DNA of 64,000 nucleotides from Patescibacteria group bacterium (GTDB lineage Bacteria > Patescibacteriota > Microgenomatia > PFEM01 > JAHIFH01), in NCBI GenBank assembly GCA_035529375.1, contig DATKWU010000017.1, positions 2,579-66,578 of the forward strand, read 5' to 3'. Shown here in pieces: positions 26,113 to 52,504 of this stretch. Within the stretch, counting starts at the first letter, position 1; each line of letters opens with the position of its first letter. Both the position numbers and the translations under genes were made by a program. The notes beneath the pieces were generated by a model. The model was not told the origin of the DNA. It did not search any database and was given only the letters and a program-made list of their open reading frames with translations.

Positions 26113-26145
26113 AAAAGCCCTTTATTTCGGGCTTTTTGGAATGTG
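26112..26145 (+). repeat. Copy 6 of the hairpin module, fused directly to the genuine tRNA-Glu gene
   Basis: aaagccctttatttcgggcttttt ggaatgtgt runs straight into the tRNA 3' end. Confidence 0.75.
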
Positions 26146-26218
26146 TGACCCCGAGGGGAATCGAACCCCTGTTTTCAGGATGAAAACCTGACGTCCTAGA
26201 CCGCTAGACGACGGGGCC
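26146..26218 (-). tRNA. tRNA-Glu (anticodon UUC); CCA not encoded
   Basis: The reverse complement GGCCCCGTCGTCTAGCGGTCTAGGACGTCAGGTTTTCATCCTGAAAACAGGGGTTCGATTCCCCTCGGGGTCA folds as a cloverleaf with acceptor, D, anticodon (loop TTTTCAT) and T (TTCGATT) arms. Confidence 0.85.
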
Positions 26219-34931: not shown

Positions 34932-35105
34932 CACTCACCTCCTTTACTAATAGGCAGGCGATAAATAAAAAAACTGCCCTCTCGGGCAGCCAAACGCTGA
35001 ACTCTAACTATTTAGCTTATAGCAAATTGTAAAGTAAAAGTCAAATTTCACTCCAATTGAGTAAAAAACTCTTTTGGGGTAAAATACGAAGTATGAGGGG
35101 CTTTT

Positions 35106-35936
35106 ATGCCAGCAAGTACTGATCTCGTTAGCCGGGCTTTTGACCTGAAAGTTCGCTATTTGGTTAAACCTCTTCCCGAATATTTGGCCGATTTAGAGTC
35201 GGTTTTAACTAAAATTAAGTCGATCTATCCGGCCACTTATCAACTACATTTTAAAAGAATCAATATTGGCGCCCAACAGACCGCTGACTACCTCAATGAG
35301 AAAATTATTCGAGAGAAAAAAGTAAAAACCGTAGATTATGTTGGCGAAATTAATAAAGGCGTTAATGATATTGACTTGGTTATCAATTTTATTAGCGGTA
35401 AGAGATTTGATGTTTCCTTAAAATTCTATAAAAAGAAAGGGCGTGTTAATTACTGGAATCCCACCCTGGATAGTTTATTAAAACATTTAACAGATAAAAA
35501 ATTTAGGGAATATTTGGACGATCGAAAATTAAAAAAGTACCTTCAGGAAATGGCTAATCTTAAGGATATTAGTTTAGCCTCAAAAAAAATTACCCCTTAT
35601 TGGGTAGCGGAAGCGGTTAATATTTTAACTGCTTTTTCCCAAAAAAACCAGAAAGTTTTTAGAAATAGATTGGCGGAAAAATTAGGCTATATCAATTTAA
35701 GCCTTACTTGTATCGTTGATGAGAACGGAGTTTTTAAAGAACTAATTGATGTGCATCCTCTACTAATTGAGAAGCTGATTAAAGGAAAGGGAAAGTTGAA
35801 AATCAAAGCTCACGGAATCGCAATAAGAATTTTCCTGGATGACCAACTCCTGACCGATTTGGCTGTTTACGCGCAATCTGCCTCTGGTGGGAGAACTGGA
35901 GGCCTGAGGATCGCCGCTTGGACGCCCCACTCCTAA
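35106..35936 (+). CDS. Hypothetical protein, a candidate restriction endonuclease partner of the convergent methyltransferase
   Basis: It is convergent with the MTase gene and overlaps its 3' end by 4 nt. It has no clear motif. Confidence 0.3.
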   Translation: MPASTDLVSRAFDLKVRYLVKPLPEYLADLESVLTKIKSIYPATYQLHFKRINIGAQQTADYLNEKIIREKKVKTVDYVGEINKGVNDIDLVINFISGKRFDVSLKFYKKKGRVNYWNPTLDSLLKHLTDKKFREYLDDRKLKKYLQEMANLKDISLASKKITPYWVAEAVNILTAFSQKNQKVFRNRLAEKLGYINLSLTCIVDENGVFKELIDVHPLLIEKLIKGKGKLKIKAHGIAIRIFLDDQLLTDLAVYAQSASGGRTGGLRIAAWTPHS

Positions 35937-37750
35937 CGAAGATCAATTGGAAATAAATTCTCAAGTTCAGTTTTGGAAATTTGAGTGTTACCTGTGATAT
36001 ATTGAATGACTTTTAATTTGTCTTTCGATCTTAGCTGCTTGACGAGATTTTCAGTGGAGATTTTAGTTTTGTTCGGGAGAAAGATTACGTTGACGTGATT
36101 TTCACCAATAAATTTCATATTTGGAGGAACAACTGCCACTTTTAGCTTAGCTGAATTAACTGCGCCAGTGATTCTGTTAACGACAATCGCAGGCCCGGTA
36201 TCATAATTCTTTGTTTTGATGTATTGGGGTTTTTTAGGATTGTTTGTTAACCTTAAGCCCTTTGAAGTAATGTTATGAGCCCAGATTAGGGGAATTCCCT
36301 TTTTAGAATCTTTAGTTAGTAAATTTTTATTTTGATTCCAAACCAATCTTCCTGTTTTAACTTGAAAACCTAAGTTAGACAATGTTGTTTTTCCTTGAAA
36401 AGATTTCTTAAGATAAGCCGGATTTTCTGTAAAAATTGTAATGCCGTTTTTTTTGAAAATGTAATTGCCTTTGTTTTCCCCCTTTTTTAACACAAGCAAC
36501 ATTGTTGTTTGAAGAGCTTGATGAAATAGTTTTGGGCTATTTAAGATTGAGAGATACTCTATGTTTGAATGTTTAATAATATATTTTCTTAGGTCAGCAA
36601 AATAAGCCCCATTATTCATTGAAGGTGGAAGCACGAAAGCTAAATAACCTCCAGGCCTTAATAAATCTAGGCTAAGTTTGATAAAAAAGGCAAATATATT
36701 GGGTCGGCCACTGACGACTTCCTGGTATTTCTTTTTAATCATATTTTCAGGTTTGAATTCAAAATAAGGAGGATTACCGATTATAAAGTCAAACTTTTCT
36801 TTTGTTGTGTGCTTTAAGCTATCAACAGTCTCAAGATTTGCCCGGGGAACAACGACGCGAGCTCTTTTAATTAATTCTTCTTCGATATCCCAACCAAATA
36901 AAGAAGGGTTTTTAAAATATTTACTGGCTGTTAATAAAAATTCTCCAGTACCGCAGGCTGGGTCCAAAATTTTAAGACCCTTTTTATTTTTGGGCAATTT
37001 TTTAAATAGTTTTTCCCTTATTGAGCGGGGAGTAAAATATTGTCCCTTAGTTTTCCTATATTCACGATTTGTATTTTGAATATACTGGATTGTCAGTTCA
37101 TGGAATTCTTCTCTTAACCTGGAAAGAGAAAAGCCATTTGTTACTGATAAGTCAGTGGATTTTCTTATTAGACCACAGAATTTTCCTCTAATCTCTAGCT
37201 TTTTAGGAGAATATTTTTTGAATTTTTTGCTCCGAGGCTCCAAGAAAATTTTACCACCGCTTTTTCTAAAAATTTTCAGCGTGGCGCCTTTTTCCGTAAT
37301 AGCAACTACAGTATCCCCGGATTCAGCGGTTATTTGATGCCTAATAAGCACGATGTCGTTATCAATTATACCCATGTCAAACATGCTGTCTCCAACGACC
37401 TTTAAGGCGTAGTGAGGAAAGCGAGTATCAAGTTTGATATTTTGAGGAATTTCTATGTCTTCTGGATTTTCGATAGGTTCTATTGGTTTACCAGCGGCGA
37501 TATTTCCCAACAAAGGAATTGTTTTGGTTTTATTAGTGGGTATGATGCCGCGGTTTTTATAAGGAGCTCTTTTCAAGTAATCTTTTTTCTCTAGTTCCTC
37601 GACAAAATACTGGGCAGTGCTGAGGTTAGTAGCGCCGAGGAATTTGGCGATTTCCTTTAGCGAGGGAGAATATCCGTTTTTAGCGATAAACGAGGTGATG
37701 AAGTCGAGCGTTTTCTTTTGCTTTTTGGTTAAAGGTTTTAGCTCTTGCAT
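35933..37750 (-). CDS. Fusion protein: full-length LexA repressor (wHTH plus S24 self-cleaving peptidase) joined to a gamma-class N6-adenine DNA methyltransferase (TaqI-like)
   Basis: The LexA part includes NIAAGKPIEP (an Ala-Gly cleavage site), VVGDSMFDMGIIDNDIVL (catalytic Ser) and GDTVVAITEKGATLKIF (catalytic Lys). After a linker at about residue 200 come MTase motif I ILDPACGTGEFL and motif IV IIGNPPYF, then a TRD-like C-terminus. It is one uninterrupted 605-aa ORF. Confidence 0.7.
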   Translation of the reverse strand: MQELKPLTKKQKKTLDFITSFIAKNGYSPSLKEIAKFLGATNLSTAQYFVEELEKKDYLKRAPYKNRGIIPTNKTKTIPLLGNIAAGKPIEPIENPEDIEIPQNIKLDTRFPHYALKVVGDSMFDMGIIDNDIVLIRHQITAESGDTVVAITEKGATLKIFRKSGGKIFLEPRSKKFKKYSPKKLEIRGKFCGLIRKSTDLSVTNGFSLSRLREEFHELTIQYIQNTNREYRKTKGQYFTPRSIREKLFKKLPKNKKGLKILDPACGTGEFLLTASKYFKNPSLFGWDIEEELIKRARVVVPRANLETVDSLKHTTKEKFDFIIGNPPYFEFKPENMIKKKYQEVVSGRPNIFAFFIKLSLDLLRPGGYLAFVLPPSMNNGAYFADLRKYIIKHSNIEYLSILNSPKLFHQALQTTMLLVLKKGENKGNYIFKKNGITIFTENPAYLKKSFQGKTTLSNLGFQVKTGRLVWNQNKNLLTKDSKKGIPLIWAHNITSKGLRLTNNPKKPQYIKTKNYDTGPAIVVNRITGAVNSAKLKVAVVPPNMKFIGENHVNVIFLPNKTKISTENLVKQLRSKDKLKVIQYITGNTQISKTELENLFPIDLR

Positions 37751-37798
37751 CTACAGTAAGTTTATGATAGATTTACAGTATTGTCAAGTAGGACATAA

Positions 37799-39604
37799 TT
37801 GAAGATAAAAATTAAAATGAAAGAGGCAGAATACGACAAACTAATTTCCCAGTTGGAAGCGGAAGCATCATCCGTTAAATACGATTTTCAGATTGCTGAC
37901 GCGATCAATAAGATTATTGAGGAGCAAAAAGGCAAGCTAACCCCCAGGCAGGAACAGCAACTAAAATGGGAATACTTGCTATTTAGGCTTATGACCAAGA
38001 ATAGTTTTGCGTCCGATGGACTGAAAACTGAGCGGTTCAAGCCAATGGCAACATTTACAGATGGCTCGATCTTTCCTGACCCAGACGGGTTTCCTGATAC
38101 AGCACTTGGTTATTTTGAATCAAGAACGGTTTCTTCTACTAACCCCATCCTCAAAGCTAGATATTTGGACTTTCTGTGGGAAAAATCCAAATCAAAAAAT
38201 AAACACCTTTTTGCCCGCGAGTCTATCGATCAATATCTGTTAACTGTTGATGAGTATGACAACGAAGATGCCATTATGGAAAGGCTGGACGGACTTCAGA
38301 GAGCAACTGAACTCTGTCTAATTTTTGAGTCTAAACTTCCCAAGAGGCCCCTCACTAAGAAGGTAGTAGCCAAACTTGTTGAGCAAATTGATAAAACTGC
38401 TCAGACAGGTAATTATCGCTGGTTGATAGAGATGTTTGAGTTAGTGCTAGCGTTGCCGTCTTTCTTTTCCCAGAAGCAAATAAAAGATTACATTGCTTTA
38501 TGCAAGGCTGCTGCCGCTCACTACCATTCTGACCAAAACTTTCATCTTCAGCGTAGCTTCCTCGATCTTAAAGCAGAGATGACCAAATTGCTTAAAATCT
38601 CAGTAGTTAAACAAAAAGCGATTCAAGAGGAAATTGGGCAGTCCTTTATCGACGAAGCAGAGGCAAAGTCTGCGAGCGGTTTGGTTAAAATACACTTCCT
38701 CCAGGAGGCAATCCAGCATTACTCTAAACTTGGAAACAAACAAAAAGTCAATGAACTAATTGCTGAAGTAAAGGCTGCTACTAAACAGGCAATCGATAAT
38801 AAGGAATTTAAGGAACTTTCTTCTACCATCAAAATTGACTCAAAGGTTATCGAAAAAATGAAAGCTAGTCTTGGTACGGGCGAAGAAGTGCCAGAAAGAA
38901 TGGGAACACTTCCTACTTTTTTTCCCAACTGGGATCACGCAGTTAAGCTAACAGCAAAGCTCAGTAAAAAATATGTTTTTCAGCATTTGGTTGGAACGGT
39001 TCATTATGGCAGCCGATATCCTATTAGCCGTCCGCAGACTCCAGAGGAGGTACAAGAAGACCATGTTATGCAGAATTTCAAAATAGAAGCAGAACTTGCT
39101 TTAAAATGGCTTACTGGATTTCTTGCGGAATTGATAAAAGAAGGCAAAGTCTCGTTAACAGACTTCCAGAAATTTTTTTCTAAACTTCAAGTCGTTGATA
39201 AAGATACCTACGAGACGGTGTTGGTGGGTCTCGATTCTTATTTTAAGGGCGACCACTTCCATGCTGCCTATGTTCTTACATTGCAACTAGAGGATTTTTT
39301 AAGATACTTATTGGCTGTTTTTGGAGGTCAAACAACAGTTCCCGAAGCGGGTGCATTTAGAGAGAAAACTCTCGGCTCTGTGCTTGTGGAGCTAAAGCCT
39401 TATTTTTCAGATCTAGTTTATCATTACATCTCTTGGGTGACGGAAGATTATCGGGGATTTAATTTGCGCAATAACATTGCCCACGGGTTCTTTAAGAAAA
39501 AACATGCTAATCCGATTTACTCAACGGCTATATTACACATTTTCTGTCTCCTGATAGCCAATACCAAAATCTCAGTTAAGGAGCAAAAAAAAGATGAAAA
39601 ATGA
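37799..39604 (+). CDS. Large alpha-helical protein with a C-terminal HEPN-like Rx4HG motif (Abi-like defense candidate)
   Basis: C-terminal NLRNNIAHGFF fits Rx4HG. The product is 601 aa. Confidence 0.4.
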   Translation: MKIKIKMKEAEYDKLISQLEAEASSVKYDFQIADAINKIIEEQKGKLTPRQEQQLKWEYLLFRLMTKNSFASDGLKTERFKPMATFTDGSIFPDPDGFPDTALGYFESRTVSSTNPILKARYLDFLWEKSKSKNKHLFARESIDQYLLTVDEYDNEDAIMERLDGLQRATELCLIFESKLPKRPLTKKVVAKLVEQIDKTAQTGNYRWLIEMFELVLALPSFFSQKQIKDYIALCKAAAAHYHSDQNFHLQRSFLDLKAEMTKLLKISVVKQKAIQEEIGQSFIDEAEAKSASGLVKIHFLQEAIQHYSKLGNKQKVNELIAEVKAATKQAIDNKEFKELSSTIKIDSKVIEKMKASLGTGEEVPERMGTLPTFFPNWDHAVKLTAKLSKKYVFQHLVGTVHYGSRYPISRPQTPEEVQEDHVMQNFKIEAELALKWLTGFLAELIKEGKVSLTDFQKFFSKLQVVDKDTYETVLVGLDSYFKGDHFHAAYVLTLQLEDFLRYLLAVFGGQTTVPEAGAFREKTLGSVLVELKPYFSDLVYHYISWVTEDYRGFNLRNNIAHGFFKKKHANPIYSTAILHIFCLLIANTKISVKEQKKDEK

Positions 39605-40373
39605 TGCTCTGATTGCCAAAAGGCTCATTGAACAAACTTTGACCAACTGGGTCAATCCTGAGATTGAAAAAAGGAAGAGCGAAGATAAACTTCCATCGGA
39701 TTTTAGGATTAAGGCTGCTCAGGTAATTTTTTCAGTAGGCGGGCCACCTTTAGTCAGAATCAATAGCGAAGTTAAAGTTATTATAGAAGCCAAGTTTAAT
39801 CGTCCTATTGAGAAAGGCGAGGCGGTTTTGAATAAGGATATTGAGGATATACGCTCTTTTCGCCTTATTGATGAAGAAAAAGATTTTGGACATATCACCA
39901 TCGTAAAACTCACAAAAGGTTGGTTTGTGGGCTTTAGCTTTATTTATGATGTCTCGAAATCCAAAGAAATTTATGATATAGCCATTGAATTTATGAAGTC
40001 TGCTCACGCTGAACTTGAGGCCAAGAGATATCGTCCTTTTGTAGAAAGCGCTTTTGTTGCTGCCGAGAACCTTGCTAAGGCAAGAATTTATCTCCTTCCC
40101 GATCAAGAAATTAGGAAGACAAAGACCCACGGCCTCGTGCATGGAAAGGTAAATAGATATGCTCGGACGAGCAGTATCATAAAGACTGATCAAAAAGATG
40201 TCTTCAATGAACTGAAAAAATTAAGAGAGAGGGCTCGTTATGACCCAAGGTTTAGTATGGAACACAAAACTGCAGAGGAAATGTTCGAAGCGCTCAGGGA
40301 ATTAAGCAAGGAGGTTTTTCGCTATCTTGTTAGATTTGGTGAATTATCTGATAAAGCAAGCAGCGTTAGTTAA
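39594..40373 (+). CDS. Hypothetical protein with a possible Rx4HG motif, translationally coupled to the upstream HEPN-like gene
   Basis: IRKTKTHGLVHG contains R-KTKT-H-G, fitting Rx4HG. There is an 11-nt overlap with the upstream gene. Confidence 0.35.
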   Translation: MKNDALIAKRLIEQTLTNWVNPEIEKRKSEDKLPSDFRIKAAQVIFSVGGPPLVRINSEVKVIIEAKFNRPIEKGEAVLNKDIEDIRSFRLIDEEKDFGHITIVKLTKGWFVGFSFIYDVSKSKEIYDIAIEFMKSAHAELEAKRYRPFVESAFVAAENLAKARIYLLPDQEIRKTKTHGLVHGKVNRYARTSSIIKTDQKDVFNELKKLRERARYDPRFSMEHKTAEEMFEALRELSKEVFRYLVRFGELSDKASSVS

Positions 40374-40505: not shown

Positions 40506-41351
40506 TTGGGACAGAGCAAGTTCATGGAATTAGGGCAGGTAATCAAAAGAGTCCCGGGCTTCAGAAGTGGAAGCAAAATAAAGGCGGGAATAGCCTCAGT
40601 CTTCTACTTGCTCGCAATTTTTTTCATCTTGCTGATTGTTGTCCCTCCTCCTGAAACTGAAAAATCCCAGATTGAAGAACAAGCGGCTACGCCCACTGAA
40701 GGTATTCTGGAATCTGAGACTGAAGAAGAGAGAGAAGAAGTTTTAGTTGCCAGGGTTATTGACGGCGACACCATTGAGATAGAAGGGGGACAAAAGGTCC
40801 GCTACATTGGGATAGACGCACCGGAATCGGTTGACCCGAATGAGCCGGTCGGTTGTTATGCCCAGGAAGCTTCTGAGAAGAACAAAGAGCTGGTTTTGAA
40901 TAAAAAAGTCAGGCTTGAAAAAGATGTTTCTGAAATGGACCGATACGGAAGACTGCTCCGTTATGTCTGGGTTGGAGATTTGCTGGTCAATGAATATTTG
41001 GTCAGGGAAGGTTACGCTCAGTCGAGCACCTATCCGCCTGACGTCAAATATCAAGACAAATTCATTGAGGCTCAGAAAAAAGCGAGGGAGGAAGAAAAGG
41101 GCCTTTGGAGCATTGACTGTGATACTTGGGGTCAATTCACACCTACTCCAAGGCCAACTCTTAAGGCTACCCCGACACCGACTCCAATTTCCAAAAGCAC
41201 AATTTATACATGTGATTGTTCAAAAACTTGCACACAAATATCATCCTGCGAGGAGGCCCAATACCAACTTAATGTTTGTGGATGTTCAGCTAGAGATGGG
41301 GATAAAGATGGGATAGCTTGTGATGGCCCCCCTCTTAATTGCCAGAAATGA
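40506..41351 (+). CDS. Membrane-anchored thermonuclease (SNase-like) with a C-terminal Excalibur calcium-binding domain
   Basis: VIDGDTIEI...RYIGIDAPE...DRYGRLLRYV is the SNase fold. DGDKDGIACDG is an Excalibur DxDxDGxxC motif. There is an N-terminal TM helix and a Thr/Pro-rich linker. Confidence 0.8.
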   Translation: MGQSKFMELGQVIKRVPGFRSGSKIKAGIASVFYLLAIFFILLIVVPPPETEKSQIEEQAATPTEGILESETEEEREEVLVARVIDGDTIEIEGGQKVRYIGIDAPESVDPNEPVGCYAQEASEKNKELVLNKKVRLEKDVSEMDRYGRLLRYVWVGDLLVNEYLVREGYAQSSTYPPDVKYQDKFIEAQKKAREEEKGLWSIDCDTWGQFTPTPRPTLKATPTPTPISKSTIYTCDCSKTCTQISSCEEAQYQLNVCGCSARDGDKDGIACDGPPLNCQK

Positions 41352-41517
41352 AAACTGTATTTTATTTCAAGAGACCTTGCTAATTGTGTCACGATTATCA
41401 ATAAAGCGAAACAAGGTTCCTCGCAAAGCGAGGGTTCTTATCAAAAATTGAAGTTGTTCGTAGCGCAGGGCATTAAGCGCTGAAATCTTGGTGGCTCGTT
41501 TAGCGGGATAAATACCA

Positions 41518-42672
41518 GTGACGATTCCCACCAGAAGCGAAAGGAAAACAATGGCTAATCGTGCTTCAAAAAAGAAGATAAAAAAACCTCGGAATTACAA
41601 GAGAAGACGCGATATGAATAAAATAATTGCCTTTAGTGAAGAAAACCTAAAATCGATATTTTATGTAAGAAGAGGAGAAACAAAATATATCGGGTCGAGA
41701 GAGTCAACGATCCTAGAGTTTAAAGAAAATTTTAACTTTGGAAGTTTAGGAAAATATGCAAAGATAATGGCATCTTTTGCCAATACGAAGGGCGGGTACA
41801 TTGTTTTTGGGATCAAAAATAGTCCCAGAGAAATTATCGGAATAAATTTAACAAAATTTGAAAACATTGATATAGCAAAATTGACAGGAAGCCTTAATGA
41901 CATCTTCTCACCCGCGATTGAGTGGGATATAAGGTCGCACAGATGGAAAAGTAAAGATTTTGGGATCATATACACACACGAAAGCGATGAGAAGCCGATT
42001 ATTGCTACAAAAAATTATAAAGACATTATTAAGGAAGCAGAAATCTATTTTAGATACTATGGGAGAACGGAAACAATTAAATTTTCTGAGTTAAAGCAGA
42101 TTATACTTGAAAGGTCAGATCAGGAAAAAAGGGCATGGATGGAAGTTTTCAAGGAAGCCCTAGAAATTGGCCCTAAAAATGTGGCCCTACTAGACACTTT
42201 TAAAGGAAAGATTCAGGGTTTGGGTAAAACAGTTTTAATTGATGAAAAACTACTCCCAAAGCTTAAATTTATTAAGAAGGGAGAGTTTACTGAAAAGAAA
42301 GGCGAGCTTACCCTAAAGCTTGTAGGAGACTTAAAAACTGTTCCAGTTGGATTACTAAAAGAACGAAAGGTTATTTTGGGAGAAGATATTTACAGATATC
42401 GTGCAAGTAATGTTTGTAAGGTAGTTGAAAAAGAGATTAAAAAACAATTCAGAGTCGGGTCAGAGCATTTAAAAGCCTGGAGAGTCCATAAAATAAGAGA
42501 ATCTGGAAAACCATCAAAATTACCCTTTAGAAATGAATATTGTGAATATAAAGAGGCAGAAAGAGATTATCGCTACTCGAAGGCCTGGATAGATTTTCTA
42601 GTTGAAAAGTATTCTGACCAAAAAAAGTACAATGAACTAAAGAGACTACCGCAAAATCCACGTGTCAAATGA
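41518..42672 (+). CDS. AlbA_2 (Schlafen-like divergent AAA) domain protein with a Lys-rich N-terminus
   Basis: ESTILEFKENFN...KIMASFANTKGGYIVFGIK is the AlbA_2 signature. Confidence 0.55.
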   Translation: MTIPTRSERKTMANRASKKKIKKPRNYKRRRDMNKIIAFSEENLKSIFYVRRGETKYIGSRESTILEFKENFNFGSLGKYAKIMASFANTKGGYIVFGIKNSPREIIGINLTKFENIDIAKLTGSLNDIFSPAIEWDIRSHRWKSKDFGIIYTHESDEKPIIATKNYKDIIKEAEIYFRYYGRTETIKFSELKQIILERSDQEKRAWMEVFKEALEIGPKNVALLDTFKGKIQGLGKTVLIDEKLLPKLKFIKKGEFTEKKGELTLKLVGDLKTVPVGLLKERKVILGEDIYRYRASNVCKVVEKEIKKQFRVGSEHLKAWRVHKIRESGKPSKLPFRNEYCEYKEAERDYRYSKAWIDFLVEKYSDQKKYNELKRLPQNPRVK

Positions 42673-50629: not shown

Positions 50630-50764
50630 ATGAGTAAAGAGCAATTTTCAAGAAATAACAAGAAGGAAAAGGGTAAAAAAGAGGACCGGATGAAGATATT
50701 TGCCAACTTCCTCGTCGACAGAATTATCGAAGAGCAGAATAAGGCTAAATTAATTGGGGAATAG
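50630..50764 (+). CDS. Small basic protein (44 aa) between the promoter/operator and the serine recombinase gene
   Basis: MSKEQFSRNNKKEKGKKEDRMKIFANFLVDRIIEEQNKAKLIGE. It is below the ORF-track cutoff. Confidence 0.3.
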   Translation: MSKEQFSRNNKKEKGKKEDRMKIFANFLVDRIIEEQNKAKLIGE

Positions 50765-50768
50765 TCAA

Positions 50769-52493
50769 ATGGGTAACCTGCCAAAACCTGAAAATGCCGT
50801 TGCCGCGATCAGAATCTCTTCTTTAAAACAAGGGCTTCAGGGCGATTCACCGGAAGACCAAAAAGAGCAAATCGAAAGGTTTGCGGAAAACCACAATATC
50901 AAGATTAAAAAGTTCTTCATCTTCATGGAGAGCGCTTCTAAAGAAGAGCAGCCGGTCCAGGAAGCGATTGATTACTGTAAAAAGCCAAAAAACGACATCC
51001 AGCTATTCATTGTCAAATCGATTGACCGCTTTACCAGAGGCGGGTCTTATCTCTATGACCATCTTAAAATGCAGCTGGTTAAATATGAGGTCAAACTGGT
51101 TGATATTTACGGGGTTATCAGCAGTCAGGAAGTAAACACTTTAGAGCATTTAAACATCAAATACGATTGGAGCGTCTACAACCCCACTAAAAAAACGGAA
51201 ATTTTGGAAGCAGAGCGGGCCAAAGACGAAATGAGAGATATCATGACCAGGATGATTGGCGCCGAGATTAGGTACGTGAGAATGGGCTACCGGGTGCGAC
51301 AAGCCCCCTTTGGCTATGTCAATGAGAAAGTGGAAACCGCTCATGGCAAGAGAGTCATCTTAAAACCCCATCCTAAAGAGTCAAAATGGATTATCAGAAT
51401 GTTTGAGCTTCGGGCCAACAGCAGCTTAAGCGATCAGGAAATTGTTGACAAGCTAAACAAGTTGGGCTTTAAAACCAGGAGGCGCTATCGCCGCGACCCT
51501 AAAGACAGAACCAAAATAATCGGCCAGACGGGAGAGTGCCCGCTGTCTTTAAAAGCTCTCTGGAAATATATTCGAAGTCCTATTTATGCCGGCGTCAACA
51601 TTGAAAAATGGACTAAGGACAAACCAGTAAAAGCCAAATTTAAGGGTTTAGTATCGGTTGAGACTTTTAATAAAGCTAATAAAGGCAAGGTTATCATTTC
51701 CGAAGAAAACGGCCAGATAGAATTCTGGAAGAAAAAGCCCCCCGACCATTTGCTTTACAAATCGGTTAGAAATCCCAAATTTCCCTACAAAAGATATGTT
51801 TTGTGCCCGATTTGCGAAAAACCTTTATATGGCAGCGCTTCCCGGGGAAGGCTTGGCAAATATTATCCTGCCTATCATTGTAATAAGCGGGGCCATTATT
51901 TCCGGGTGCCAAAGCAGGAATTTGAAGAAACGATTGCTGGTTTTGTCAGCAATTTGGGCATCAAACCAAAGTGCGTCAAAGACTTGAAAAAGTATGTCAT
52001 TGATTTATGGCAGAAAAAAATGGAAAACAGTCAAAAGGACAATAAGCAGATAGACCGGAAAATCAAAGAACTGAAATCTTTAGCCGAGATAACCGCTGAT
52101 AAGATTAAATACCTTGAGTCTGCTACCGCCATTAAGTACATGGAAGAAGAGCTGGTTAAAACCGAAAAAGAGATTAGAAACCTCCAAGCAGGCAAAATAG
52201 AAAACAAAGAAAAAGACGTCAATATGGAACGAGTAATGGAGTTTGTCGGTTACTTTCTGGAACACTTGGAAGAACTGATTCTCGGAGGCTCAAATCCTCT
52301 GAAAAGAGCTGATTATTTTGGGCTTATCTTTGAGAAACCGCCTACCTACGAAGAATTGGTTTCTGGAACACCAAAATTGGCTCCATTTATCGAACTAAAA
52401 GACGATTTTGGCTCCTCTTTAGTCCCAATGTGTGAGCCCGGAAGGAATCGAACCTTCGACACCCTGCTTAAAAGGCAGGTGCTCTACCGCTGA
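50769..52493 (+). CDS. Large serine recombinase (resolvase/invertase catalytic domain, recombinase domain, zinc ribbon, coiled coil)
   Basis: N-terminal AVAAIRISSLKQ...SIDRFTRG is the serine-recombinase catalytic region. A zinc ribbon CPICEKP...YHCNKRGHY and a C-terminal coiled coil follow. The ORF in the track starts at TTG 50754. The 3' end runs 61 nt into tRNA-Lys on the opposite strand. Confidence 0.8.
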   Translation: MGNLPKPENAVAAIRISSLKQGLQGDSPEDQKEQIERFAENHNIKIKKFFIFMESASKEEQPVQEAIDYCKKPKNDIQLFIVKSIDRFTRGGSYLYDHLKMQLVKYEVKLVDIYGVISSQEVNTLEHLNIKYDWSVYNPTKKTEILEAERAKDEMRDIMTRMIGAEIRYVRMGYRVRQAPFGYVNEKVETAHGKRVILKPHPKESKWIIRMFELRANSSLSDQEIVDKLNKLGFKTRRRYRRDPKDRTKIIGQTGECPLSLKALWKYIRSPIYAGVNIEKWTKDKPVKAKFKGLVSVETFNKANKGKVIISEENGQIEFWKKKPPDHLLYKSVRNPKFPYKRYVLCPICEKPLYGSASRGRLGKYYPAYHCNKRGHYFRVPKQEFEETIAGFVSNLGIKPKCVKDLKKYVIDLWQKKMENSQKDNKQIDRKIKELKSLAEITADKIKYLESATAIKYMEEELVKTEKEIRNLQAGKIENKEKDVNMERVMEFVGYFLEHLEELILGGSNPLKRADYFGLIFEKPPTYEELVSGTPKLAPFIELKDDFGSSLVPMCEPGRNRTFDTLLKRQVLYR

Positions 52494-52504
52494 GCTACGG
52501 GCCC
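52433..52504 (-). tRNA. tRNA-Lys (anticodon UUU)
   Basis: The reverse complement GGGCCCGTAGCTCAGCGGTAGAGCACCTGCCTTTTAAGCAGGGTGTCGAAGGTTCGATTCCTTCCGGGCTCA folds as a cloverleaf with T loop TTCGATT and anticodon loop CTTTTAA. Confidence 0.85.

Follow-up and report, generated by a model that had tools for sequence, protein, structure and literature searches.

Among described systems, the fusion reported here most resembles the regulatory methyltransferases (MTases) M.SsoII, M.Ecl18kI and M.EcoRII, which likewise carry an N-terminal DNA-binding domain on the MTase and have an operator at the MTase promoter; operator binding leads to auto-repression and to correct timing of modification relative to restriction (PMC12707154). 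M.MspI is also a regulatory MTase. These enzymes are C5-cytosine MTases; they have a short helix-turn-helix (HTH) region but lack both a peptidase domain and a signal input. In the SsoII and Ecl18kI systems the operator lies between overlapping promoters of the MTase and endonuclease genes (PMC12707154). The fusion, in contrast, contains a whole LexA with its self-cleavage apparatus, joined to a gamma-class N6-adenine MTase, with a convergent gene for a probable endonuclease and a putative operator built of 11 bp direct repeats. A second comparison is with the C proteins of Type II restriction-modification (R-M) systems, small and portable transcription factors that come with an operator, are found alongside many unrelated R-M systems and set the order of expression. 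The LexA module likewise has a putative operator, is found with at least four MTase types and would set that order. C proteins are Xre-type HTH dimers of about 80 aa and, as a rule, act on C/R transcription, whereas the LexA module appears to control the M gene, is ~200 aa long and carries a predicted damage-responsive protease.

The fusion shares with the canonical LexA of the SOS response its domain structure, predicted cleavage chemistry, inferred self-regulation and 11 bp direct-repeat geometry, direct-repeat LexA operators being found in Alphaproteobacteria (GTTC-N7-GTTC) and Balneolaeota. It differs in its length (605 rather than ~200 aa), in its fusion to an MTase, in its location within a mobile R-M cassette, and in that no regulon is detected beyond its own promoter, either in the window (the whole 64-kb stretch of DNA analysed) or in 394 kb of flanks from related loci. 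The MTase half has the motif order, NPPY motif and Eco57I/N6_Mtase profile of M.TaqI, CamA and M.BseCI, its nearest solved structures among PDB matches, although only the catalytic domain shows this similarity (E 1e-9 to 1e-15). We found no description of LexA-MTase fusions or of LexA-controlled R-M systems in the full-text literature searched, which did not include the study of the SOS response in Patescibacteria (Sanchez-Osuna et al. 2017, PMID 28618189); this is consistent with the initial annotation of the locus, in which no described system of this architecture was known.

Architecture of the LexA-methyltransferase fusion

The LexA half of the fusion is a complete LexA by its domains, its cleavage residues and its match to an equivalog model (Table 1). 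LexA_DNA_bind (PF01726; residues 5-68, E 6.6e-13) and Peptidase_S24 (residues 79-191) both exceed their Pfam gathering scores, and the NCBIfam LexA equivalog TIGR00498 scores 144.1 bits against a trusted cutoff of 110.95, spanning model positions 2-202 of 203. Alignment to the E. coli and Thermotoga LexA structures matches the scissile bond A86-G87 to VAAG of E. coli LexA, the nucleophile S122 (GDSM) to GMSM and the general base K159 (TLK) to TVK. All four residues are unchanged in every member (52/52) of the family alignment from which our conservation figures derive, in which overall identity is 50-60%, and conservation within the LexA half peaks in the cleavage loop (72%). RecA*-stimulated autocleavage is inferred. 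The likely recognition helix is TAQYFVEEL. At 605 aa the protein is far longer than a stand-alone LexA of ~200 aa, since some 400 aa of MTase come after the S24 domain. The linker between the halves varies across the family (mean pairwise identity 0.45, with indels), and its bounds are indicated by unfused LexAs, which stop at '...GLIRK', and by stand-alone MTases, which start at about the same point.

Table 1. Features of the LexA-MTase locus, in positions of the 64-kb window
Feature	Position	Strand	Basis or remark
Promoter-like site of partner gene: TTGAGT, 17-nt spacer, TAAAAT	35057..35085	+	Consensus match only
Convergent 276-aa partner, probable Type II restriction endonuclease	35106..35936	+	Overlaps MTase 3' end by 4 nt
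LexA-MTase fusion gene	35933..37750	-	605 aa plus stop; ATG start; uninterrupted ORF
MTase C-terminal domain, residues 446-605, presumed target-recognition domain	35936..36415	-	Position after catalytic domain
N6-adenine MTase catalytic domain, residues 226-445	36416..37075	-	PF02384 and PF07669
Motif IV NPPY, residues 326-329	36764-36775	-	Essentially invariant in family
Motif I DPACGTG, residues 263-269	36944-36964	-	Essentially invariant in family
Interdomain linker, residues 199-225	37076..37156	-	Length and sequence variable across family
Cleavage loop and S24 peptidase/dimerisation domain, residues 79-198	37157..37516	-	PF00717; alignment to LexA structures
TLK with Lys159	37274-37282	-	Coordinates verified
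GDSM with Ser122	37382-37393	-	Coordinates verified
Ala86-Gly87 codons	37490-37495	-	Coordinates verified
LexA winged-HTH DNA-binding domain, residues 1-75	37526..37750	-	PF01726 over residues 5-68
Putative LexA operator, three 11-bp units TACTGTAaatc / TATCATAaact / TACTGTAgATG	37748..37780	-	No binding data
Sigma-70-like promoter: TTGACA, 17-nt spacer, TAAACT	37759..37787	-	10/12 consensus match; identical in L004

Judged by sequence, the MTase half is a self-sufficient gamma-class N6-adenine MTase; its methylation activity is inferred. N6_Mtase (PF02384; residues 224-445, 83.9 bits) and Eco57I (PF07669; residues 310-409, 72 bits) both score above gathering, and the succession of motif I, motif IV and C-terminal domain is that of the gamma class. 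No Pfam model covers the C-terminal domain (residues 446-605), which has a mean pairwise identity of 68% across the family, is also present in stand-alone ~400-aa MTases, and is inferred to be the target-recognition domain.

The initial annotation, made from the sequence alone, had claimed a single uninterrupted ORF joining a LexA with a winged HTH, an Ala-Gly cleavage site, a GDSM serine and a TLK lysine to a gamma-class N6-adenine MTase with motifs I and IV. Each of these claims held: the catalytic serine and lysine are both present on alignment to known structures, the two Pfam profiles for each half all exceed their gathering scores, TIGR00498 agrees, and the MTase class is supported by Pfam domains and motif order. 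The rival possibility that a frameshift error in sequencing or the loss of a stop codon merged adjacent lexA and MTase genes draws some support from loci L004 and L089, where the two genes form an operon but are unfused and 1-28 nt apart, the two arrangements being one mutation apart. It is all but excluded, however, because at least 120 independent database clusters have the same full-length architecture (99% coverage, with relatives at 50-61% identity) and the fusion ORF is intact at 79 loci from other assemblies, so that the uninterrupted fusion with a conserved junction recurs in many samples. The LexA-MTase fusion is a large Patescibacteria family and not an oddity of a single genome, which adds to the initial annotation. 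Viral contigs yielded relatives of the MTase alone, with no LexA fusion found, and a scan of genome contigs with one protein query reached only close relatives, at two loci, one of them L004. The MTase at locus L086 does not represent an ancestral stand-alone form, as was at first considered, but a derivative that has been truncated, since the last ~21 S24 codons are kept in frame and followed by a stop.

The two-gene cassette and its surroundings

A partner gene, usually convergent, abuts the MTase at 57 of 60 loci and belongs to at least four unrelated families. The genes upstream of the cassette vary among loci and the partner is the only conserved neighbour; the conserved unit is a two-gene cassette of LexA-MTase fusion plus partner. 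Searches of all partner families with Pfam and NCBIfam profiles gave no match, that of the window among them, and the window partner has only two other homologues in 5.8 billion proteins. A homologue at L086 is 55% identical and has the same arrangement. Endonucleases occupy the partner position in relatives, however, with RE_MamI at L004 and RE_AccI at L123, and one partner family (cluster 1) has a predicted HinP1I/MspI-like fold, the model best matching R.HinP1I and R.MspI with low Foldseek TM-scores (0.36-0.44). The window partner aligns with this cluster-1 family in hhalign at 80% probability (E 1.4e-5) over ~100 residues, in which its putative catalytic motif, D88/D90...S104-x-K106, is aligned. 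An AlphaFold model of the window partner, built on a three-sequence alignment, had a pLDDT of 39 and was discarded. Its identification as a probable restriction endonuclease is thus indirect, resting on the endonucleases of relatives and this remote alignment, and its activity is inferred. The gene has a GAGGGG Shine-Dalgarno sequence 3' of its promoter-like site, at which there are no operator words.

The C-terminal domain of the MTase is highly conserved although the partners belong to unrelated families. This is a point against the R-M reading proposed below, under which either a single specificity must be common to several endonuclease families of unrelated origin or few residues must set specificity.

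In the window, the fusion lies inside an integrative conjugative element (ICE) and the cassette is neighboured by abortive-infection-like genes (HEPN, DUF4209, Schlafen and SNase). There is no small Xre-type HTH controller gene, of the kind found upstream of C/R, between 34.9 and 37.8 kb, that role presumably falling to LexA, and no recA in the 64-kb window. The earlier placement of the locus in a mobile region with defence-like genes is borne out, as are the convergent orientation and short 3' overlap of the partner ORF, and its description there as a plausible restriction endonuclease gains the indirect support of the MamI, AccI and HinP1I/MspI-like relatives and the motif alignment.

Promoter, putative operator and portability of the LexA module

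Only 8 nt separate the -10 box of the fusion gene from the ATG, without a Shine-Dalgarno sequence, from which we infer that the mRNA is probably leaderless. The putative operator covers the promoter spacer, the -10 box, the likely transcription start and the start codon. The TACTGTA-N15-TACTGTA pair occurs once in the 64-kb window, where 0.13 occurrences are expected by chance, and a direct repeat with an 11 bp period is present in 48 of 55 family promoters. Autorepression of the fusion gene by its LexA domain is indicated because the sequence of the operator unit covaries with the LexA recognition helix across the family; the support is comparative and binding itself is inferred. A second copy of the operator is absent from the 64-kb window, and no further copies are seen in 394 kb flanking 49 other loci; these are flanks only, and neither a wider regulon nor a second host LexA is excluded. 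The palindromic LexA box suggested by the initial annotation is absent, and the putative operator is a direct repeat.

A different arrangement is seen at L004, where an unfused LexA, 85% identical to that of the window, stands behind an identical promoter-operator and ahead of a different MTase and the MamI endonuclease. The promoter-operator-lexA unit is therefore portable, and it occurs with at least four MTase types, fused or unfused. L123 has a LexA-MTase plus an HTH_3 C-like gene upstream of the AccI endonuclease. The suggestion that the gene is auto-repressed through a LexA-type operator is supported by the repeat-bearing promoters, the helix covariation and the identical operator on an unfused LexA, with the palindrome corrected to a direct repeat and the occurrence of LexA unfused or on other MTase types as an addition.

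We also note a conserved element, TTATCCACA, a consensus DnaA-box-like element of main-clade promoters; it is present in most family promoters and absent from the window, and suggests an additional, unexplained input. It was considered as the MTase recognition site and rejected: by inspection it lacks a 4 bp palindrome of the kind cut by HinP1I and MspI, it is absent from the clade of the window, and it precedes the L124 LexA, whose fused MTase has another specificity domain. This last occurrence indicates that the element travels with the promoter-lexA module.

A proposed damage-responsive controller and its alternatives

Our preferred reading, to which we assign a probability of roughly 0.6, is that the fusion combines a LexA-type controller with the modification enzyme of a Type II R-M cassette carried on an integrative conjugative element, with DNA binding, self-cleavage and MTase activity all inferred. 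The LexA domain would bind the 11 bp repeat and repress its own gene, keeping the MTase low at steady state. On entry into a naive recipient lacking the repressor the MTase would be made first, and the chromosome would be protected before the endonuclease accumulates, the same logic of expression order as that of the C proteins and the SsoII-type regulatory MTases. RecA-ssDNA filaments, which might form at breaks made by self-restriction, after repair has left sites unmodified, or when ssDNA enters by conjugation, would then induce the S24 domain to cut between Ala86 and Gly87, freeing the DNA-binding domain and derepressing the promoter. More MTase would follow, and the S24-MTase fragment would probably stay active, although its degradation would invert the outcome. 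The predicted net effect is that damage raises protective methylation, as a Type II counterpart of damage-induced restriction alleviation. The likeness is one of inferred function: the Type I process also shifts the balance from restriction towards protection of unmodified self DNA upon damage (PMC12707154), but it acts through ClpXP proteolysis of HsdR or control of assembly and not through LexA-controlled MTase synthesis. SOS-triggered cleavage with a boost in methylase is an inference, and the coupling of RecA*-induced cleavage to the MTase put forward in the initial annotation is at present no more than that.

The opposite outcome would be SOS-induced suicide or addiction, in which cleavage exposes degrons, both fragments including S24-MTase are degraded, methylation lapses and a stable endonuclease cuts the chromosome, giving either abortive-infection-like death of damaged or phage-infected cells or enforced retention of the ICE. 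In E. coli, ClpXP and Lon degrade the pieces of cleaved LexA; the N-terminal fragment in this family would end ...IAA, resembling the ...VAA of the E. coli fragment, the cassette lies among abortive-infection-like genes, and R-M systems are known to act as addiction modules (PMC3874152). However, at the unfused loci L004 and L089 cleavage of LexA would leave the MTase intact and do no more than derepress the lexA-M operon, which argues that the ancestral logic is induction and not loss. Cleavage would also derepress synthesis of new full-length protein, and there is no indication of a degron in the C-terminal fragment. We consider this alternative unlikely.

Another alternative is that the protein is a general SOS repressor of the cell or element. 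Its MTase would then be an orphan epigenetic enzyme, either held at SOS operators or set free from them, and the gene downstream would be incidental. The TIGR00498 score above trusted cutoff and the NCBI name 'transcriptional repressor LexA' fit this, as does the operator type, which agrees with direct-repeat LexA motifs, the Patescibacteria study being one of the examples of direct-repeat recognition that PMC7739468 cites. The C-terminal domain is as strongly conserved as in housekeeping MTases, and the nearest solved MTase is CamA, which is a solitary enzyme. Against it stand the lack of a second operator in the 64-kb window or the 394 kb around 49 other loci, the partner gene as the only conserved context, the location of the window copy inside an ICE, the recognised endonucleases as partners at L004 and L123, and the service of one promoter-operator-lexA module to different MTases; this reading too seems improbable. 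Also improbable is that LexA merely substitutes for a C protein, as a DNA-binding and dimerisation device whose self-cleavage has no physiological use and no SOS coupling. Autorepression alone would account for the operator data, and regulation by MTases of the SsoII and EcoRII types involves no proteolysis (PMC12707154), but the invariance of the Ala-Gly, Ser and Lys residues in the whole alignment and the conservation of the cleavage loop are hard to explain without selection for cleavage.

Returning to the preferred reading, a bolder form of it is that self-cleaving LexA repressors, either fused to an MTase or encoded just upstream of one, are an unrecognised class of portable R-M controllers in Patescibacteria that wire Type II R-M into the RecA/SOS response, such that breaks or conjugative ssDNA raise methylation in a feedback loop against autoimmunity. 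We see this joint claim as no more probable than its negation. That the DnaA-box-like elements further couple methylase synthesis to replication is only a possibility.

Patescibacteria are reported to draw much of their defence from R-M systems. For Type I systems, the alleviation of restriction upon DNA damage has been well documented (PMC12707154); how Type II systems avoid killing their hosts after damage, repair or transfer is only partly understood. Hundreds of Patescibacteria entries named 'transcriptional repressor LexA' are probable R-M methyltransferases, and could mislead reconstructions of SOS regulons. That LexA seems to have been redeployed beyond the SOS regulon as a controller both mobile and modular, its recognition helix evolving together with the operator, bears on the diversification of LexA motifs, and a LexA-fused MTase would link the SOS signal directly to Type II modification in a manner that is easy to test.

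A conserved LexA-methyltransferase fusion

The fusion gene encodes a LexA repressor joined to an N6-adenine methyltransferase (MTase), and both halves are recognized by profile searches. Pfam matches LexA_DNA_bind (residues 5-68), Peptidase_S24 (79-191), N6_Mtase (224-445) and Eco57I (310-409), each above its gathering score, and the NCBIfam LexA equivalog TIGR00498 scores 144 bits (cutoff 111) over model positions 2-202 of 203. The N-terminal 200 residues match solved LexA structures from Thermotoga (E 9e-31) and E. coli, and the structure alignment identifies Ala86-Gly87 as the scissile bond, Ser122 (GDSM) as the nucleophile and Lys159 (TLK) as the general base. The C-terminal ~400 residues match the solved structures of CamA, M.TaqI and M.BseCI, and the MTase is gamma-class because motif I (DPACGTG) precedes motif IV (NPPY) and the C-terminal domain follows both. 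The initial annotation had proposed a single uninterrupted 605-aa ORF with the LexA hallmarks (winged HTH, Ala-Gly, serine and lysine) and a gamma-class half with these two motifs, and each claim held.

Searching 5.8 billion proteins yields 1403 matches, and full-length fusions make up the entire top 120 (99% coverage, 50-61% identity, 547-645 aa), so at least 120 such relatives exist; the named entries are Patescibacteria, some labeled 'transcriptional repressor LexA' by NCBI. A metagenome scan provides 429 confirmed stretches, with an intact fusion ORF in nearly all of the 80 loci kept. Residues A86, G87, S122 and K159 are invariant across 52 aligned fusions, as are DPxxG, the core of motif I, and N326, P328 and Y329 of NPPY. 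Mean pairwise identity in the family alignment is 52% in the DNA-binding domain, 72% in the cleavage loop, 66% in the S24 core, 45% in the length-variable linker, 70% in the MTase catalytic domain and 68% in its C-terminal domain. The fusion is thus real, and neither an artefact nor a one-off.

The two-gene cassette and its genomic setting

What the loci share is a two-gene cassette. A gene abuts the fusion 3' end in 57 of 60 distinct loci, almost always convergently and frequently with overlap, and the upstream neighbors are virtually never shared (41 clusters among 47 loci). These partners form mutually unrelated families, c0 (32 loci, ~320 aa), c1 (21 loci, ~300 aa), c2 (3 loci) and the window type, and this combination of a constant MTase scaffold, swappable unrelated partners and changing genomic context is the signature of a Type II restriction-modification (R-M) module. 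Pfam and NCBIfam searches of all partner families give no match. By hhalign, the window's partner is remotely related to c1 (80%, E 1.4e-5), with its ND-ID...S104-L-K106 aligned on the conserved SD-LD...S-L-K of that family; the HinP1I and MspI active site, D...(Q/N)-x-K, is of the same form. At two loci with an MTase of a different type, the partner position is occupied by an RE_MamI endonuclease (locus L004, E 1.7e-46) or an RE_AccI endonuclease (locus L123). From the remote alignment and the recognized endonucleases in relatives, the partners are likely endonucleases.

Pairing of MTase and partner is independent of LexA, as seen at two loci. At L086, a partner 55% identical to the window's converges on a 423-aa MTase gene, again overlapping it by 4 nt; this MTase is 66% identical to the C-terminal half of the window's fusion, uses a TTG start and has a tRNA-Glu immediately upstream. 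The last ~21 S24 codons (QNKKLKRIIPKKLEIRGKFCGLIRK; L086 7255-7400) are still in frame upstream of the MTase and are followed by a stop, indicating that LexA has been deleted; L086 is a natural LexA-deleted derivative retaining the MTase and partner pair. At L090, a c1-type partner is paired with a stand-alone MTase, P0222, upstream of which (L090 300-430) a degenerate TTTCGGTTTCTTTATCC sequence has the look of a LexA operator that has decayed, and it is therefore possible that some stand-alone MTases derive from fusions by LexA loss. We note that stand-alone MTases of the family (~400 aa, 30-58% identity) are also present on IMG/VR viral contigs (L091-L122), several of them labeled giant-virus MAGs (GVMAG); they keep the distinctive C-terminal domain, and the LexA module is absent from all MTase relatives on these contigs.

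The window's cassette is within an ICE-like element (~26-52.5 kb), which also carries an integrase fragment at its edge and whose cargo includes a PLD nuclease, an M23 peptidase, a VirB4-like ATPase, PrgI, two T4SS pilin-like proteins, a Replic_Relax relaxase and a TrwB/TraG coupling protein; Patescibacteria conjugative elements have been little studied. Beside the cassette, the DUF7380/DUF4209 and HEPN genes could be a two-gene defense or abortive-infection module, and the SNase-Excalibur thermonuclease gene, whose product is likely secreted or membrane-anchored, and the Schlafen/AlbA_2 gene are further defense-like cargo. The convergent partner ORF with its 4-nt overlap, and the mobile region with defense-like neighbors, had both been proposed earlier and are confirmed.

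Features of the window discussed in the text
Feature	Position	Strand	Description
ICE-like element	~26100-52500		
tRNA-Glu	26145-26218		One edge of the ICE-like element
Partner gene	35106-35936	+	276 aa; convergent, overlaps fusion 3' end by 4 nt
LexA-MTase fusion ORF	35933-37750	-	605 aa; ATG start, no interruption
DUF7380/DUF4209 gene	37799-40373		601 aa; divergent from fusion gene; range is that of this gene plus the HEPN-domain gene
HEPN-domain gene	37799-40373		259 aa; overlaps DUF7380/DUF4209 gene by 11 nt; range as for the pair
SNase-Excalibur thermonuclease gene	40506-42672		Thr/Pro-rich linker, Cys-rich C-terminus; range is that of this gene plus the Schlafen/AlbA_2 gene
Schlafen/AlbA_2 gene	40506-42672		After SNase-Excalibur gene; range as for the pair
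Serine recombinase and tRNA-Lys	50754-52504		Other edge of the ICE-like element

A putative operator repeat and a portable LexA

The divergent upstream region contains a sigma-70-like promoter (TTGACA, 17-nt spacer, TAAACT) and a direct repeat of 11-bp period, with three units (TACTGTAaatc, TATCATAaact and TACTGTAgATG) spanning the spacer, the -10 box and the start codon. The TACTGTA pair occurs once in the 64-kb window (chance expectation 0.13). In 48 of 55 non-redundant family promoters an exact 6-mer is repeated at offset 11, a pattern seen in just 12% of control upstream regions; no other offset is seen in more than 13 loci. Across the family, repeat unit and LexA recognition helix vary together. 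Direct-repeat LexA operators of this period are known in Alphaproteobacteria (GTTC-N7-GTTC; PMC4951493), and a Patescibacteria study is cited among the direct-repeat cases (PMC7739468). The initial annotation had suggested auto-repression through a LexA-type operator, and the repeat and its covariation support the inference that the fusion protein represses its own promoter, for which there are no binding data. The 64-kb window holds no second operator copy, and the 394 kb of sequence around 49 other loci adds none; the separate promoter-like site that precedes the window's partner gene contains no operator words.

Recognition helices and operator repeat units across the family
Helix	Repeat unit
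..HKHIENL	TTTCGCT
..HQHI/V..L	TTTCGGT
STAHFHVS.L	AATCGAAA
..HYY/HYH..	ATGTTC
GTIHEHIEEL	TTTCGGG
TAQYFVEEL (window)	TACTGTA

In the window's promoter (37748-37764), 8 nt separate the -10 box from the ATG and a Shine-Dalgarno is absent, such that the window's clade probably makes a leaderless mRNA (likewise L004, L006 and L008); leaders of main-clade relatives are roughly 25-60 nt. Fusion genes of the main clade often follow copies of the exact DnaA-box consensus (TTATCCACA/TGTGGATAA; seen among L006-L085 and in L124), with 49 copies within 200 bp upstream of fusion genes (41 of 55 loci) and 12 elsewhere in 471 kb, an enrichment of ~170-fold; a frequent pattern is one copy on or close to the -35 box and a second directly ahead of the ATG. 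The consensus is absent from window 37751-37900 and from the window's clade. Because the consensus is also found ahead of a LexA fusion to another type of MTase, the element belongs to the promoter-lexA module. DnaA, and hence replication, is a possible second input to the promoter, without DnaA binding data.

LexA is a portable module and a proposed controller. An exhaustive HMMER search reveals close stand-alone relatives of both halves. L004 encodes an unfused 200-aa LexA, the closest relative of the window's module at 85% identity, behind an identical promoter-operator (CTTGACAATACTGTAAATCTATCATAAACTTACTGTA), with similarity ending sharply upstream of the -35 box; 28 nt after lexA is a different, 722-aa MTase, plus the convergent MamI endonuclease. 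The L004 contig (DATKWK010000039.1) is labeled Candidatus Bathyarchaeia archaeon, yet the promoter is bacterial-type, and it is likely a mis-binned Patescibacteria contig, the alternative being cross-domain transfer; a neighboring gene codes for a 1278-aa TPR/PIN (PIN-TPR-GreABC) protein. L089 has another unfused LexA (59% identical), whose gene is separated by 1 nt from that of a beta-class N6_N4 MTase; next comes a gene without annotation in convergent orientation. A 501-aa TIR-domain protein (L089 2155-3660), encoded divergently ~1.3 kb upstream of this cassette, suggests a defense island. Further fusions join LexA to an Eco57I_C-type MTase (P0295, which has an AccI endonuclease and an HTH_3 C-like gene beside it) and to a TaqI_C-type MTase (P0344); both promoters arrange the -35 box, the 11-bp repeat and the -10 box in the same way. 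The window's LexA module is nearer to the unfused LexAs (85% and 59%) than to its fused relatives (≤56%), and the MTase module shows an even 59-68% identity to every relative, which points to module exchange or repeated fusion.

A proposed mechanism

No LexA-MTase fusion or LexA-controlled R-M system is described in the literature searched, consistent with the earlier remark that none was known, with Sanchez-Osuna et al. 2017, which might bear on this, outside its scope. A 2025 R-M review covers regulatory MTases, C proteins and Type I alleviation and never mentions LexA (PMC12707154). Functionally the fusion would work like the regulatory MTases SsoII, Ecl18kI and EcoRII and like C proteins. 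It departs from the SsoII type by carrying a peptidase, by its enzyme class and by its gene orientation, and from stand-alone LexA by its length.

Several alternatives are not excluded. SOS-triggered loss of the MTase could lead to suicide, but in the unfused relatives cleavage can only derepress the lexA-M operon, which favors MTase induction over destruction. It also remains possible that the protein regulates SOS in general, its MTase being an orphan, or that the LexA module is never cleaved. The MTase half is self-sufficient, as the stand-alone and truncated MTases show.

The comparisons establish the architecture, the cassette, the covarying operator repeat and the portability of LexA. 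A plausible scenario, inferred at each step, is MTase induction, in which the LexA domain would keep MTase synthesis low at steady state, and entry into a naive cell would find the promoter unrepressed and give the MTase a head start over the endonuclease. Upon DNA damage, RecA-ssDNA filaments, perhaps arising from self-restriction breaks, repair leaving unmodified sites or conjugative ssDNA entry, would trigger Ala86-Gly87 cleavage. This would release the DNA-binding domain, derepress the promoter and raise methylation, an outcome similar to Type I damage-induced restriction alleviation.
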